Shown here: piece by piece, positions 29,201-33,637 of the stretch
Numbering within the stretch: position 1 is the stretch's first letter
Layout of the letters: each line of letters begins with the position of its first letter
Source of the DNA: an uncultured Gammaproteobacteria bacterium
Lineage (GTDB): Bacteria > Patescibacteriota > Microgenomatia > Woykebacterales > RBG-16-39-9b
DNA length: 64,000 nt
Reading direction: 5' to 3'
Assembly (NCBI GenBank): GCA_964360785.1
Contig: CAYHXX010000001.1
Coordinates: forward strand, 138,549-202,548
Program-made: the position numbers and the translations under genes
The notes under the pieces: generated by a model
Seen by the model: the letters and a program-made list of their open reading frames with translations, nothing else
Told to the model about the DNA's origin: nothing
Database searches by the model: none

Positions 29201-30169
29201 CTAATCAGCAAACATTTCTGTGAACATTTTTCCGTATTTGACTGTGTCGTAAACGCCGATTCCAATCCGAGTATATTTTGTTGAAATCCTCGCTTTTTGG
29301 TGTTCTGGGGATTGAAGAAACCGTTCATGGGCAGTAATTGCGTCTGGGGCAAAAGAGAGGTTTTCAGCAAGAGAGTTAAATTCAAGATTTTTTGCAGTTG
29401 CTCGGTCGTACGGATTTTTCCCAGTTGGATCTATATGACCAAAATAACCACCCTCAATCATAGCTTTGGAATGGTCACGAGCAATATTTGTTAGTAACGA
29501 ATCAAGTTTAAGCTTCGGTAAATTCTTTTCAATTCTAGTTTGGTTTAAGGAGATTAAGAGAAGTTTTTCCGAGTCTGGATCCAAAATAGCTTTGTGGTCT
29601 GGAATCGACAAACGAACAAAACTTTCGCTGTCTTGTTTAGTTGAGGTAATAGCAATAATACCTTCACGAACCGAACGTGAAAATGCTTGTTGTAAAGGCA
29701 TGCTAAATCTAGTTGTAAAGGGAAGTATAGTACCAATAATTTTTGAAGTGGACATTGCGTTTTTTATATTCGTTGATATTGGTAATATTATTATTACCGT
29801 GGAAATAAAAGCAATGATAAGGCAACTGGAAAGTAAGTTTGGTATCAAGCCGAAATAACGGTTAAACTTTGAAAGAATGAGACTCATCGGTAGTTTTCGG
29901 AAAAAATCATTAAAAAATGCCGAAAAAAGTACTTCCGAAGAAATAAAAACAAAAATAAAGGAAATCAAGTTTACCAGCTCTGATTTAAATCCAACCAGAA
30001 CTATTAAAAAAGATAGAATTGGAAAAATGGAAATAGCACAAACTAAGGAAATGAAAAAACCTAGGAATTCAAAAAATTGCTCCAAAAAACCACGTTTGAA
30101 TACAAACGCAGCATAAATTACAACGAAGATAATTACTAAAACATCAATCCAGTTGAAACCAAATAGCAT
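29201..30169 (-). CDS. CvpA-family membrane protein fused to a C-terminal CAP/SCP (YkwD-like) domain
   Basis: The N-terminal ~160 aa have four TM helices (colicin V production CvpA-like). The C-terminus carries GYFGHIDP...HQKARIS...IGIGV, a CAP-domain signature. Confidence 0.55.
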   Translation of the reverse strand: MLFGFNWIDVLVIIFVVIYAAFVFKRGFLEQFFEFLGFFISLVCAISIFPILSFLIVLVGFKSELVNLISFIFVFISSEVLFSAFFNDFFRKLPMSLILSKFNRYFGLIPNLLSSCLIIAFISTVIIILPISTNIKNAMSTSKIIGTILPFTTRFSMPLQQAFSRSVREGIIAITSTKQDSESFVRLSIPDHKAILDPDSEKLLLISLNQTRIEKNLPKLKLDSLLTNIARDHSKAMIEGGYFGHIDPTGKNPYDRATAKNLEFNSLAENLSFAPDAITAHERFLQSPEHQKARISTKYTRIGIGVYDTVKYGKMFTEMFAD

Positions 30170-30194
30170 TTATTAGATTAATTCTGACCAAAAA

Positions 30195-30302
30195 CTAATG
30201 CCACGCCCAAGGTAATGTAATAACATTTGCAGAAGCAAGTACCGCAACTATGGCAATCACTAATGCTGTTAAAGCTATGTACAATGTTGTGTTTTTTGAC
30301 AA
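30195..30302 (-). CDS. Small hydrophobic peptide 1 (35 aa, TTG start), tandem paralog of peptide 2
   Basis: Manual translation gives (M)SKNTTLYIALTALVIAIVAVLASANVITLPWAWH. SD AAGGAGGTGA lies 8 nt upstream. The C-terminal ANVITLPWAWH is conserved with peptide 2. Not in the ORF track because it is under 60 aa. Confidence 0.5.
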   Translation of the reverse strand: MSKNTTLYIALTALVIAIVAVLASANVITLPWAWH

Positions 30303-30333
30303 TCAACTCACCTCCTTATAAATTTGGGCTAAA

Positions 30334-30534: not shown

Positions 30535-31995
30535 CTAGGAGTTCCCTTTAGGTAAGCTAACAAAAAAAGTAGAGCCCTCGTTGGTTTTTGATTCAAACCA
30601 AATTTTACCTCCGTGTGCTTCAGAAATTACGCGCGAAAGATACAGACCTAAACCCAAGCCTTGGTAATCATATTGCAAAAGGTCAGTCGCGCGGTGAAAT
30701 TTTTTAAAAACTAACGGTATCTCTTTTTCAGATATGCCGATTCCACTATCTTTTATACTAATTATATAGTTTTCGCTCTTTTCGCTAATCCCAACAGTAA
30801 CTGAACCACCTTCCTTGTTAAATTTAATCGCATTTTCGATTAAATTATTAAAGAGTATTTTGATTTTGGTCACGTCTCCATTAGTTAAATAACTTTCCGC
30901 TGGTGTAACAAAATGAAGTGAAACTTTTTTTGCTAAAGCCTCGGGGGAATAAAAAGAAATTACCTGATTAATTATTGAGGTTAAATCTAGTTTTGATCCT
31001 GAAGAAATCTTTTTATCAGTTTCGAGTGAGACGATACTTAAAAATTCCTCGACCAAACTTTCAAGATTGGAGATTGAAACTGAGATAGCCTTATACTTGT
31101 CTTTGTAAGGTTTTGGTGCCTTCGGATCAACAATAAGCTGACTGGTATAGCCTTTTAAAACAGTTAAAGGTGTTCTAAGGTTATGGGAAGCAATAACAAT
31201 AAACTCATCTTTAAGACGGTCTAGATCTTTCAGGGCCTCGATATTTTTTTGCAAAGAACTTGCCATATTGTTGACCGATTGCGACAAAGTTTCAAGCTCA
31301 TCCCCAGTAAATACAGATATTCTTTCGTTTAGTTTACCTTTACTAACAAGGGACGCCCCTGAGACAATTTTTTCGATTGGGGATACAATTATTCGATCCA
31401 CAGTAAATACTACAAGTAAGGTCGATAAAATCGCGACCAAAAAACTAATTCCGACAATAATCGCGATTGTATAGGCTAGACTTTCCCGAATACTGTCATA
31501 ATTTACAAAAAAACGAATTGAGTACGGATGTGCTCCAAAATCATCGAAAAAAGGCTCAACTATTTCAGTAACTTCACCGAGACTATTTTTGAACTCGCTA
31601 TGACTGTCGGAATTAACTGCGGTTATTATCTTTGGATCAGCAATTTTCCGTTCATTACCCTTTGAAACTGTTGAGTCATAAAGTATCTCGCCAGTGACAT
31701 CAATGATTTGGAAACTTTTTACATTTTGCTCAAGCACAAGTGTCTTTTCGGCAATTTCCTCCATTTTGATATCACCTGAATCAAAATAAATTTCATAGGC
31801 GGTGGCAAGTGGTTTGACTGATAAACTAGTAAAACTTCGCGCGGAACTAAGGATGGCCTGTCTTTGATTGTTGAGTTGGTAGGTGATAAAAACGATTGAA
31901 ATAAGTGTGGCTAGAAGAAATAGAATTGACAGCAACAAAATTAGAAACTTTATTTTAAGTGATTTTTTAGCAAATCTGAACAGGGGCAGGTTCAT
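30535..31995 (-). CDS. Sensor histidine kinase (2 TM, extracytoplasmic sensor domain, HAMP-HisKA-HATPase_c)
   Basis: TM1 aa 15-38, TM2 aa 175-198; H-box IVIASHNLRTPL; N/G boxes. No cognate DNA-binding response regulator is adjacent. Confidence 0.8.
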   Translation of the reverse strand: MNLPLFRFAKKSLKIKFLILLLSILFLLATLISIVFITYQLNNQRQAILSSARSFTSLSVKPLATAYEIYFDSGDIKMEEIAEKTLVLEQNVKSFQIIDVTGEILYDSTVSKGNERKIADPKIITAVNSDSHSEFKNSLGEVTEIVEPFFDDFGAHPYSIRFFVNYDSIRESLAYTIAIIVGISFLVAILSTLLVVFTVDRIIVSPIEKIVSGASLVSKGKLNERISVFTGDELETLSQSVNNMASSLQKNIEALKDLDRLKDEFIVIASHNLRTPLTVLKGYTSQLIVDPKAPKPYKDKYKAISVSISNLESLVEEFLSIVSLETDKKISSGSKLDLTSIINQVISFYSPEALAKKVSLHFVTPAESYLTNGDVTKIKILFNNLIENAIKFNKEGGSVTVGISEKSENYIISIKDSGIGISEKEIPLVFKKFHRATDLLQYDYQGLGLGLYLSRVISEAHGGKIWFESKTNEGSTFFVSLPKGNS

Positions 31996-32011
31996 GATTT
32001 AAGCAGAATAT

Positions 32012-33637
32012 TTAGTTGCTAGTGGTTTTAATTTCGCGACCACTTACTGACTCTAGTATGAAGTCAGTTAATATGTTTGTATTAAAGTCGTAATTATTGC
32101 GAATGATAAATGTATTGGTCACAGAATAAAGGGGGATAACCGGAACATCGGCAACAATTTCAGCAACCAAATTCTCAAGCAGTTTTTTTCGTTCCTTGGG
32201 AACAAAACTTTTATTGACCTTCTCAATTTCCTGATCCACTTTAGAACTAGAGTAACTTAAAAGATTAGAGTCGGCTTCTGTTCGAAAAATACCATCAATA
32301 TACTCTCCGCCATCACTGGCCAACGGTCCGGCAATAAAGGTTGCTGCTTTTCCAGCAAACAAATCTTTAACCAGTAAACTAAAGCTTTCAACAACCTTTA
32401 TATTTGTTTTAATGCCACTATCAGCTAATTCTGCAGAAATTGCCTTGGCAACTTCTTCGCGATCAGCAGTTATGTAAATATCAAACTCAAGATTGGCTGA
32501 GTTTGTATCTTTCAATAAGACCTTTGCTTTAGTGGCGTCCTTTATATTATCTTGTATTTCTGGATTGTAACCAACAATTGATTTGGTAATGAATTGATTG
32601 GCTTTTTTTCCAGAAACCGAGGCGATTTTGATTACTTTATTATTATCGATGGAAAGCTTGACTGCCTCGCGCACACTTTTCTGTAGAAGAGGATTGGGTT
32701 TACCGTTTAACTCCTTGGCAGCAAAGTTAAAAAATAGCATTACCACTCTAGGTTCGTCTTCCTTGCGAATTTGAAAATCATTACTAAGCCCTGTGTTATT
32801 TGTTTCAACTCGGGCGTAATCAATCTCTTGATTTTTTAGTGCTTTTAACAGATCATCATCAGTTTCATAAACAATGAACTTTGCTTTTTTTAGTTTTGGT
32901 TTTGTGCCCCAATAGCCACCGAACCGTTCGACTATCGCTTCTTCATCTTTTGTAAAACTTACTATCTTAAATGGTCCTGTTCCGGTTGCTTTATCCAAAC
33001 CATCACGTTCGGTTTGCTTTTTTGAAAGTATATAAACGTCAGTTATACGATTCAGTAGTAATGGGTCTGGTTTATTTGTAATAATATCGACTGTTTTGTC
33101 ATCAATTATCTTTACCTCTTTAACTGTTGAAACCGAGTTTGTTGATGGCCAGGCTTTTTCTTCATCTTCGGCATTTTCCAAAACTTGATCAAATGAATAT
33201 TTAACATCCTCAACTGTCAAAATTTCTCCGGACTGGAATTTGATTCCGGTTCTGATAGTGAAGCGCCAGGTTGAAGTATCGGGATTGGTCCATTTAGTTG
33301 CGATTGCTGGCACAATACCGGAACTGCGAACCTTTGTAAGAGCTTCAAAGACGGAATCATTGAAGTTAGTATCGTCAATTGTGGGTGGGTTGGAACTTTT
33401 TGGATATATTCCTGACAACGATGTCCAACCCAAGTTAATTTGTTCTCTTTCTAGACCAGTCACAACTTTTTCTTCGTTTGGCTTTTCCTTTAGGAAAAAA
33501 ATAAAGACAAGAAAAGCTGTGACGCCTACTACCAAGAGTAAAATAATAATTTTTGAAAAGTTAACAATTGAGAAATTTGATTTTGGAGCACTTGCTACTG
33601 AAACCTGTTGGTTATTTGTGGACAATTCTTCAGGCAT
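32012..33637 (-). CDS. Membrane-anchored solute-binding protein, SBP_bac_5 (OppA/DppA-like peptide-binding) family
   Basis: N-terminal TM anchor IIILLLVVGVTAFLVFIFFL; family-5 core ATKWTNPDTSTWRFTIRTGIKFQSGE. No ABC permease or ATPase genes nearby. Confidence 0.7.
   Translation of the reverse strand: MPEELSTNNQQVSVASAPKSNFSIVNFSKIIILLLVVGVTAFLVFIFFLKEKPNEEKVVTGLEREQINLGWTSLSGIYPKSSNPPTIDDTNFNDSVFEALTKVRSSGIVPAIATKWTNPDTSTWRFTIRTGIKFQSGEILTVEDVKYSFDQVLENAEDEEKAWPSTNSVSTVKEVKIIDDKTVDIITNKPDPLLLNRITDVYILSKKQTERDGLDKATGTGPFKIVSFTKDEEAIVERFGGYWGTKPKLKKAKFIVYETDDDLLKALKNQEIDYARVETNNTGLSNDFQIRKEDEPRVVMLFFNFAAKELNGKPNPLLQKSVREAVKLSIDNNKVIKIASVSGKKANQFITKSIVGYNPEIQDNIKDATKAKVLLKDTNSANLEFDIYITADREEVAKAISAELADSGIKTNIKVVESFSLLVKDLFAGKAATFIAGPLASDGGEYIDGIFRTEADSNLLSYSSSKVDQEIEKVNKSFVPKERKKLLENLVAEIVADVPVIPLYSVTNTFIIRNNYDFNTNILTDFILESVSGREIKTTSN

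Follow-up and report, generated by a model that had tools for sequence, protein, structure and literature searches.

Tandem genes for 34-36-residue hydrophobic peptides between a sensor kinase gene and a CvpA-CAP gene: a conserved four-part module and possible readings of its peptides

Two short tandem genes, here called pepA and pepB, were analyzed in a 64-kb stretch of contig CAYHXX010000001.1 (the window, which means that whole stretch). On sequence evidence they belong to a previously undescribed family of 34-36-residue peptides that is part of no named family, and their product may serve as a signal to their own neighbours. They form part of a conserved four-part module, which consists of a membrane-tethered family-5 solute-binding protein (SBP5), a sensor histidine kinase, one to four peptide genes, and a CvpA domain with a CAP domain, either fused or as separate genes. 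In total 26 peptide copies were found in 13 loci. All of them are 34-36 residues long, all have GGAGGTGA upstream, and all lie between the same kinase and CvpA-CAP or its separate parts. An affiliation of the host with the Patescibacteria, or Candidate Phyla Radiation (CPR), is plausible: the window's contig measures 497 kb and has type IV pilus genes and weak ribosome-binding sites, and one locus comes from groundwater collected on a 0.1-um filter.

The peptide genes and the module that carries them

The peptides encoded by pepA and pepB share 74% amino acid identity. Their translations and the positions of both open reading frames (ORFs) agree with the first-pass annotation of this DNA, which had described them as paralogous 35-residue peptides. 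That annotation had also called both genes unannotated, which does not hold for pepA: a public protein collection contains the identical sequence as an unnamed gene called on a 497-kb contig, whereas the exact pepB sequence was not found in a public collection of 15 billion predicted proteins. The strong Shine-Dalgarno sequences claimed for each gene are present as a perfect 10-nt AAGGAGGTGA, which lies 9 nt upstream of the start in pepA and 5 nt upstream in pepB. These are the two longest Shine-Dalgarno matches among 55 window genes; the third longest has 8 nt, and matches of 3-4 nt are the rule. The CvpA-CAP gene directly behind pepB has a weak ribosome-binding site. Because the ribosome-binding sites of the peptide genes are the strongest in the window and that of CvpA-CAP is weak, the peptides should be made in large excess over CvpA-CAP, a conclusion that we regard as robust. 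The majority of window genes have a weak Shine-Dalgarno sequence or none.

The two genes are unevenly similar along their length. Their first parts (nt 1-75) share 57% nucleotide identity and their 3' ends (nt 76-105) share 93%, synonymous sites included, with a 25-nt perfect run. The near identity of the 3' ends had been noted before, with a shared C-terminus given as five residues; the motif LPWAWH has six. Orthologues in different genomes differ by 20-30% in the same stretch (the last 30 nt). The homogenised 3' ends of the window copies indicate either gene conversion or selection for matching tails.

When the first copies of the loci were compared, synonymous differences were saturated (pS 0.47-0.97) and non-synonymous differences were few (pN 0.03-0.28), and omega was 0.02-0.2 wherever it could be calculated. 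A degenerate DNA pattern for the peptide had 2 matches in the window, against 0.00 expected from shuffles. An Rfam scan of the window returned only tRNAs, with no match at the peptide region, and the mRNA of this region folds worse than shuffled sequence (z=+1.47). Since synonymous change is saturated while pN is low, and since there is neither an Rfam match nor an excess of RNA structure, pepA and pepB are, on the evidence of their substitution pattern, translated protein-coding genes under purifying selection and not a DNA repeat. The explanation by a non-coding repeat, which the first-pass annotation had raised against its own proposal, thus fails. A non-coding origin of the conservation between the kinase and CvpA-CAP, as a repeat or an RNA element, would have in its favour the 25-nt stretch that is identical in both copies; frame-specific conservation, together with a start, stop and length conserved in 26 copies, leaves this alternative with next to no credibility.

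The other loci were collected in three ways. First, a search for CvpA-CAP homologues yielded contigs at 54-80% identity, and the small ORFs were found in every contig that reached the region. Secondly, the degenerate DNA pattern recovered all of the CvpA-CAP-derived loci plus L010 (CAYIWY010000004.1), which has 77% nucleotide identity to the window and is the only species-representative genome with the family, and L014, a true metagenome locus from Hainich groundwater (0.1 um filter). Five of the six metagenome loci that matched the pattern were discarded as chance matches with in-frame stops, and L014 alone is real. Third, a profile search of 1.84 billion representative proteins gave 5 clusters only, all of them stand-alone proteins of 34-36 residues. 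Looking up these five clusters led to the loci P0021, L017, L019 and L020, in which the gene order is the same. Four peptide copies are present in L008 and in L017 (identical to L018), three in L001, two each in L002, L004, L009 and the P0021 contig, and one each in L003, L019 and L020. A concatenated-peptide query gave no match in a word-index protein search, the peptides had no match in Pfam, NCBIfam, PHROGs or PADLOC, and no description of the family was found in the literature. Readings of the peptides as phage holins or as part of a defence system were dropped because there was no match in PHROGs or PADLOC.

The arrangement of the module is tight. In the window the gaps in the order SBP5, kinase, pepA, pepB and CvpA-CAP measure 16, 93, 31 and 25 bp with all genes on the minus strand, which agrees with the spacing of 16 to 93 bp first reported. 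In 13/13 loci the kinase is followed after 18-93 bp by the peptides, and the distance from the last peptide copy to CvpA-CAP is 6-25 bp in most loci. In L003, L017 and the P0021 contig a gap of 9-16 bp separates SBP5 from the kinase that follows it, and an SBP5 without transporter genes adjoins the kinase in every locus that reaches that far. The first-pass annotation had suggested looking for the peptides and the same synteny in relatives. The small ORFs are present in every relative that keeps the flanking genes, and the four-part order is conserved down to 39-52% protein identity. For example, L017 differs strongly from the window (SBP5 48%, kinase 52%, CvpA-CAP 39% and peptides 51% identity) and keeps the order.

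The module behaves as a unit, because its outer flanks differ in L017 (where a glycosyltransferase and purN/purL form the two borders), because CvpA and CAP are separate genes on the P0021 contig, and because in L001 and L002 the whole module is inverted relative to the diacylglycerol kinase (DAGK)-YidC-Band7 genes that flank it in the window and L003. Distant CvpA-CAP fusions (about 30% identity) occur in unrelated contexts without the kinase, SBP5 or peptides; thus the peptides are tied to the full module and not to CvpA-CAP as such. At positions 6468-12111 of L017, purN-like, purL-like and purQ-like genes follow CvpA-CAP, a neighbourhood that echoes the cvpA-purF operon of E. coli.

Peptide anatomy and partner proteins

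The peptides begin with the conserved sequence MPK[NG]T[AT][LM][WY]. Residues M1, K3, L22, P31 and W32 are invariant in all 26 copies, and T5, A13, A20, V27, I28, T29 and L30 are near-invariant. Position 8 is W or Y, position 23 is A, V or M, position 25 is only T, A or S (26/26), and position 26 is N, K, D or E. The core (positions 9-24; about 17-19 residues after the N-terminal stub) is conserved in hydrophobicity alone, and it is followed by the conserved block [NKDE]V[IV][TS][LF]PW. In the 35-residue peptides the hydrophobic stretch covers positions 6-24 and the VITLPW block positions 27-32. Each peptide has a single hydrophobic span, and it is predicted, by an inference that we consider robust, to insert with Lys3 inside and with the conserved ...VITLPW-x-x-x C-terminus on the outer face of the membrane. 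Conservation of the core showed no significant helical-face periodicity (permutation p=0.6), which argues against a specific helix-helix interface and for a function at the termini. The alanine stripe of close relatives (A10, A13, A17, A20) is lost in L017 and P0021.

At least three paralogue types are common to several genomes and occur in a conserved order: A (MPKNTALW...), B (MSKNTTLY...T12) and C. The type-A orthologue is the first copy after the kinase in L001, L003, L008, L009, L010 and L020, and type-B orthologues are found in L002, L008 and L010. Because the paralogue types are shared between genomes in conserved order, the peptide duplications are old. The tail of 2-4 residues after W32 is variable, and its last residue tends to match within a genome: it is H,H in the window, N,N in L010 and R in all four copies of L017. 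A genome-specific last residue and homogenised 3' ends would be expected if all copies must fit one partner.

Several known C-terminal or N-terminal signals were considered and rejected. Resemblances to IPTL-CTERM, LPXTG-sortase and pilin signals do not hold, since in those the motif precedes the hydrophobic segment. A G|F motif for pilin cleavage and a Cys lipobox are also missing from the peptides.

The flanking genes were identified by Pfam and hydropathy as the proteins named in the first-pass annotation (Table 1). SBP5 has a single N-terminal hydrophobic segment (residues 30-48 by hydropathy). No permease or ATPase genes lie beside it in the window, L003 or L017 or were found among the scanned window ORFs, which confirms the earlier description of an SBP5 without an ABC transporter. 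Its best PDB matches are 5u4o, an uncharacterised protein, and DppA (1dpe), and in NCBIfam it comes closest to Opp5A_nikA, NikA, CntA and DppA, in each case far below the equivalog cut-off. In the SBP5 alignment the loop carrying DppA Arg355 is deleted. A second SBP5 of 531 residues (42035-43630, minus strand), 25% identical to the first, has no adjacent permease or kinase; its neighbours are a Peptidase_S51 gene and a holin-like gene. SBP5 proteins without transporter genes may be a general feature of this organism.

The transmembrane segments of the kinase are at residues 19-37 and 179-197 by hydropathy. Its sensor domain had no PDB sequence match and only one match in a word-index search of 5.8 billion proteins, and it appears to have no detectable relatives outside the clade that carries the module. 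The catalytic core has a merely generic likeness to WalK, PnpS, MtrB and PhoR. An AlphaFold2 single-chain model of the sensor domain, made from a two-sequence alignment, had a predicted local distance difference test (pLDDT) score of 50 and was unusable.

In agreement with the earlier statement that the window has no cognate DNA-binding response regulator, no such domain was found in about 50 window ORFs scanned; no helix-turn-helix or tetratricopeptide-repeat regulator was found among them either. A receiver-only gene (34280-34666, minus strand, 128 residues) lies 650 bp upstream of the module next to DAGK. It was rejected as the cognate regulator of the kinase because the phospho-acceptor Asp is missing, and it does not contradict the earlier statement. 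CCVVNLP replaces D-x-x-M-P in this protein, and most of the acidic pocket is gone. This pseudo-receiver is conserved beside DAGK in L001-L003. Of the 14 tRNA genes in the 64 kb, tRNA-Gln (33753-33826) lies between the module and the DAGK/pseudo-receiver pair. A second two-component pair, a soluble HisKA-HATPase kinase (19220-20107) and a receiver-only protein (18859-19425), is found directly upstream of type IV pilus genes, namely PilB-like (17173-18858), PilC-like (16087-17169) and a pilin with an N-methylation motif (10800-11264), all on the minus strand.

In CvpA-CAP, Pfam identified Colicin_V (PF02674; E=4.9e-11, 43.2 bits against a gathering threshold of 29.3) and CAP (PF00188; E=6.9e-11, 43.5 against 21.1). 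The NCBIfam matches were YkwD, the MarP N-terminal domain (residues 8-176) and DalA, all below cut-off. The AlphaFold2 model had a mean pLDDT of 84.6, with the CAP domain above 90. Foldseek matched it to the bacterial SCP proteins 4ifa, BB0689 (4d53; TM score 0.90) and SAV1118, whose function is unassigned, and at weak E-values the CAP domain had Pry1, tablysin-15 and SmVAL4 as neighbours.

Table 1. Positions of the module genes and of the elements upstream of the peptide genes in the window.
Feature	Position	Strand	Remarks
SBP5, membrane-anchored family-5 solute-binding protein	32012..33637	minus	First module gene; Pfam SBP_bac_5 E=3.5e-57, 194.6 bits
Sensor histidine kinase	30535..31995	minus	First transmembrane segment, ~140-residue extracytoplasmic domain, second transmembrane segment, HAMP, HisKA, HATPase_c (Pfam)
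Promoter-like TTGACA-17 nt-GACAAT	30504..30532	minus	Starts 3 nt after kinase stop codon, upstream of peptide genes; 10/12 consensus matches
Conserved leader	30443..30490	minus	Begins ATGACTGCC; readable as 15-codon frame MTAQLFFCFPKEVTI that ends one base before pepA start
Ribosome-binding site of pepA	30451-30460	minus	Inside conserved leader upstream of pepA
pepA	30441..30334	minus	ATG start; 35-residue type-A peptide; MPKNTALWVALVALVLAVVAVLAAANIITLPWAWH
Ribosome-binding site of pepB	30308-30317	minus	
pepB	30302..30195	minus	TTG start; 35-residue type-B peptide; MSKNTTLYIALTALVIAIVAVLASANVITLPWAWH
CvpA-CAP fusion	29201..30169	minus	CvpA-type four-helix membrane domain, residues ~7-128; extracytoplasmic CAP/SCP (YkwD-type) domain, residues ~185-321; starts 25 bp after pepB

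The partner proteins and the tandem layout bear on the proposal that the peptides are abundant effectors, such as membrane-active toxins, bacteriocins or surfactant-like peptides, that are controlled by the kinase and exported or carried with the help of CvpA-CAP. A bacteriocin or toxin with CvpA-assisted export had been one of the two suggestions of the first-pass annotation. Tandem small genes in 1-4 copies, each with a strong ribosome-binding site, with a kinase next door, would suit such effectors, as would the historical link of CvpA to colicin V production and the binding of hydrophobic ligands by eukaryotic CAP domains, to which the Pry1, tablysin-15 and SmVAL4 neighbours point. However, the hydrophobic moment of the peptides is 0.04-0.12 and their net charge 0 to +2, so that they are neither amphipathic nor cationic, in contrast to the reference peptides used for comparison. 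Peptides so hydrophobic would be insoluble. No double-glycine leader, ABC exporter or immunity gene was found in any locus, and CvpA-CAP fusions without peptides exist. The strong purifying selection and the kept paralogue types differ from the diversification that is typical of toxins, and an export role of CvpA is unproven (bioRxiv 10.1101/2020.09.25.314492). The suggestion therefore found little support, and we consider it improbable.

Two elements precede pepA (Table 1). The TTGACA and G[AG]A[CA]AAT of the first, a candidate promoter judged from its sequence, are kept in nine close loci, which include the window, L002, L003, L004 (in a looser form), L008, L009, L010 and L020. It is absent in L014, L017 and L019, where the first peptide sits 18-30 bp after the kinase. 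The second, at 30443-30490, is probably a conserved non-coding 5' leader rather than a gene: its 15-codon frame is open in 5-6 loci, but most substitutions in it alter the amino acid, and it lacks a separate ribosome-binding site.

On the plus strand a further promoter-like sequence, TTGACA-17-TAAATT (30296-30324), overlaps the start of pepB and faces pepA in the antisense direction. It arises from the xTG-TCA-AAA at the start of Ser2-type copies, recurs in those of L002, L008 and L010, and could be chance. Such an antisense site would be in keeping with hydrophobic toxins of the type I toxin-antitoxin kind, restrained by an antisense RNA, and the size, hydrophobicity and tandem layout of the peptides (compare the tandem 35-residue Ldr peptides) also fit. 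However, the site is confined to the Ser2-type copies and promoter-like matches are not enriched in the region (22 vs 16.3 +/- 3.6). In addition, the strongest ribosome-binding sites and an unstructured mRNA are the opposite of type I toxin mRNAs, and the operon context with housekeeping-like signalling genes is kept over 39-52% identity. A type I toxin is very improbable for these reasons.

Possible functions of the peptides

We tentatively favour the reading that the peptide is the module's own signal, made by the cell and read by the tethered SBP5 and the kinase through its outer-face C-terminus; this is a possibility suggested by sequence and not a confident assignment. The decapeptide (N/K/D/E)-V-I-T-L-P-W-x-(W/F)-x would be displayed on the outer face of the membrane, or it would be released by cleavage after the small residue 25, either at a signal-peptidase-type (-3/-1) site or by an intramembrane protease. 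The Sec-type pro-peptide pheromones Phr, PapR and NprX have a cleavable signal peptide with n-, h- and c-regions and small residues at -3 and -1, and the mature C-terminal peptide comes after it. In the present peptides position 25 is small, position 23 is A, V or M and position 26 is polar, but Thr dominates at the putative -1 site and the hydrophobic stretch is long. The exposed or released C-terminus would be the ligand of the module and would bind to SBP5, an OppA/DppA-like protein that is tethered to the membrane and serves no transporter. SBP5, translationally linked to the kinase, would then gate the kinase via its extracytoplasmic domain, and the kinase would act through an unlinked response regulator on the conserved promoter before the peptide-CvpA-CAP unit, so that a feedback loop is closed. 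CvpA-CAP, co-transcribed with the peptides, might handle them (insertion, trimming or release) or be a co-regulated envelope effector. The system would resemble the Gram-positive short-hydrophobic-peptide pheromones, with the OppA-type protein rewired so that it reports to a kinase outside the cell without import.

This reading is favoured for several reasons. First, conservation is found at the termini and not on a helical face. Secondly, the tails are genome-specific and homogenised. Third, the copy number of 1-4 and the translation signals suit a substrate or ligand better than a stoichiometric subunit. Fourth, a transporterless OppA-type protein joined to a kinase needs a ligand. Lastly, the overall shape of the peptides matches that of short hydrophobic peptide pheromones (PMC7564271).

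Several observations weigh against the signal. The putative -1 residue at position 25 is Thr in 16/26 copies, which makes a poor signal-peptidase site. The hydrophobic stretch is flanked by aromatics, W/Y8 and W32, that are 24 residues apart, and together with the fixed length these give the peptide the look of a stably inserted, uncleaved transmembrane helix. The near-invariant length and the five N-terminal residues conserved at the protein level are more than a mere leader needs. With respect to the class of ligand, the best family matches of SBP5 appear to be binders of nickel, metallophores and dipeptides and not pheromone-binding OppA, and the second SBP5 without a kinase neighbour indicates that a transporterless SBP5 is not special to the module. 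The scan of window ORFs revealed no linked gene for a processing protease, an exporter or a response regulator. Finally, the family is known from about 13 loci only, which limits statistical support and reach, and the co-variation arguments are based on few lineages.

Nearly as likely as the signal, and likewise no better than a possibility, is a membrane-resident micro-protein: an uncleaved single-pass helix that would serve the kinase as a cofactor or regulate it by feedback, in the way that MgrB, SafA and UgtS act on PhoQ, or be a small subunit of CvpA-CAP. The module would then serve envelope sensing and repair, with SBP5 sensing an external or cell-wall-derived ligand and the peptides as output. 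One hydrophobic span between Lys3 with W/Y8 and P31-W32, not amphipathic, a length fixed at 34-36 residues, and a position always between the kinase and CvpA-CAP, with the last copy 6-25 bp from the latter, are what such a helix would be expected to have. Small single-pass proteins that bind the transmembrane and periplasmic domains of a kinase and are expressed under its control are established (PMC12648545). The partners are also of an envelope type: CvpA has a link to sigma-E (bioRxiv 10.1101/2020.09.25.314492), and in the module its domain is like the MarP anchor and the CAP domain weakly like DalA (PMC10470522). However, the core has no conserved helical face and diverges freely between lineages. 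In addition, 1-4 diverged copies with by far the strongest ribosome-binding sites, beside a weakly translated partner, have the wrong stoichiometry for a subunit or a low-level regulator, the known kinase-regulating micro-proteins are single-copy, and distant CvpA-CAP fusions work without such peptides.

The signal reading has a more elaborate form, which we regard as unlikely to be correct in all of its parts. In this form, ultra-small bacteria, probably Patescibacteria/CPR, would communicate by peptides through a circuit that is complete in itself and wired in a new way. A 35-residue prepeptide of the anchor type would yield a C-terminal decapeptide on the outer face, to be read extracellularly by SBP5 and the kinase; CvpA-CAP would be a dedicated maturation or release factor, the first biochemical role for the CvpA family; and the tail residues would act as pherotypes.

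The family is an example of the under-annotation of small proteins, with pepB missing from 15 billion predicted proteins and with no family entry in Pfam, NCBIfam, PHROGs or PADLOC. The genomes that keep the module are very small: the window's contig measures 497 kb and carries few regulators and mostly weak ribosome-binding sites. That the four parts nevertheless stay together across 39-52% protein identity, and that the peptides have the strongest translation signals of the window, suggests a surface function that is important and heavily used. Should the peptides prove to be the kinase ligand, the module would be a candidate for peptide signalling in a group where none is described, with a new architecture in which an OppA-type protein gates a kinase. 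If they are membrane cofactors, micro-proteins of the MgrB type would come to include families with several copies. In both cases the close linkage supplies CvpA and bacterial CAP domains with a concrete, testable partner.

Comparison with known systems

Pheromones of the short hydrophobic peptide (SHP) type have a basic N-terminus, a hydrophobic body and a C-terminal mature part of 7-9 residues, and they are matured by the membrane protease Eep and read via an OppA-type protein (PMC7564271). The precursors of SHP/Rgg and ComS-XIP/ComR are about 17-35 residues long, comparable to the 35-residue peptides with K3 described here. Their active part is often aromatic, which may be compared with the conserved VITLPW block, and the protein that first binds the signal is of the OppA/AmiA type in family 5, to which SBP5 also belongs. 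In those systems the peptide gene is not linked to the genes for Eep and for the exporter PptAB (PMC7564271). However, there is no sequence similarity between these precursors and the present peptides. The known signals are imported and read by an adjacent cytoplasmic Rgg or ComR, whereas the neighbours here are SBP5, the kinase and CvpA-CAP in all loci; with no permease beside SBP5 and a kinase as its neighbour, sensing would be extracellular. The N-terminal stub and the length are also far more constrained here.

MgrB (47 residues), SafA (65 residues) and UgtS (34 residues) act on PhoQ and contact the transmembrane and periplasmic domains of the kinase, and MgrB is expressed under the control of the same system, which provides feedback (PMC12648545). 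Like the present single-span peptides, they are very small bitopic proteins with a short extracytoplasmic C-terminus. There is no homology, however, and those proteins are single-copy and encoded outside the kinase operon, in contrast to 1-4 tandem paralogues with exceptional translation signals that always have CvpA-CAP behind them.

Gating of the kinase by SBP5 would have precedents in LuxP-LuxQ, TorT-TorS and DppA-Tap. In these, and in ChvE-VirA, an extracytoplasmic solute-binding protein with no part in transport reports its ligand to a membrane receptor with a HAMP domain or kinase output. DppA is a family-5 protein, and DppA-Tap serves dipeptide chemotaxis. The ligand of these systems is an external small molecule or nutrient, whereas here it would be a peptide encoded in the operon, and no similarity to the sensor domains of those receptors was detected in the kinase. 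In the agr operons (AgrB-AgrD-AgrC-AgrA) the gene for a small membrane-associated precursor peptide shares its locus with genes for a polytopic membrane protein and a histidine kinase. As a functional analogy, the peptide would correspond to AgrD, CvpA-CAP to AgrB and the kinase to AgrC; no part is homologous. A peptide gene and a kinase in one locus, as in the kinase-sensed autoinducing peptides of Agr, Com and Fsr, is a feature of 13/13 loci here. The module differs from agr in that it has no linked LytTR regulator, no Cys or Ser for a thiolactone or lactone ring, an additional SBP5, and peptides downstream of the kinase. No AgrB, C39 or ABC domain, double-glycine leader or functional regulator was found in the locus, and CvpA-CAP is a mere candidate analogue.

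Tandem paralogues of about 20-35 codons with their own ribosome-binding sites, leaderless and under two-component control, are known from the phenol-soluble modulin (PSM) alpha operon, aureocin A70 and garvicin KS. The PSMs and leaderless bacteriocins are amphipathic, usually cationic, and have a dedicated ABC exporter, whereas the present peptides are uniformly hydrophobic with no exporter nearby. In contrast to type I toxin-antitoxin systems, translation is maximised here and not restrained, and the antisense promoter-like site is not conserved across copy types.

With respect to the last gene of the module, the function of CvpA is described as 'largely unknown', with a genetic link to the sigma-E envelope stress response and an unresolved role in colicin V export (bioRxiv 10.1101/2020.09.25.314492). 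In mycobacterial MarP a four-helix CvpA-type domain also anchors an extracytoplasmic domain; the fusion partner is a serine protease in MarP and CAP/YkwD here. DalA binds peptidoglycan and associates with the divisome (PMC10470522). Taken together, the present family is best filed as small peptides attached to two-component signalling, which fail the defining features of the SHP/ComS, Agr/Com, PSM/bacteriocin and type I toxin classes.

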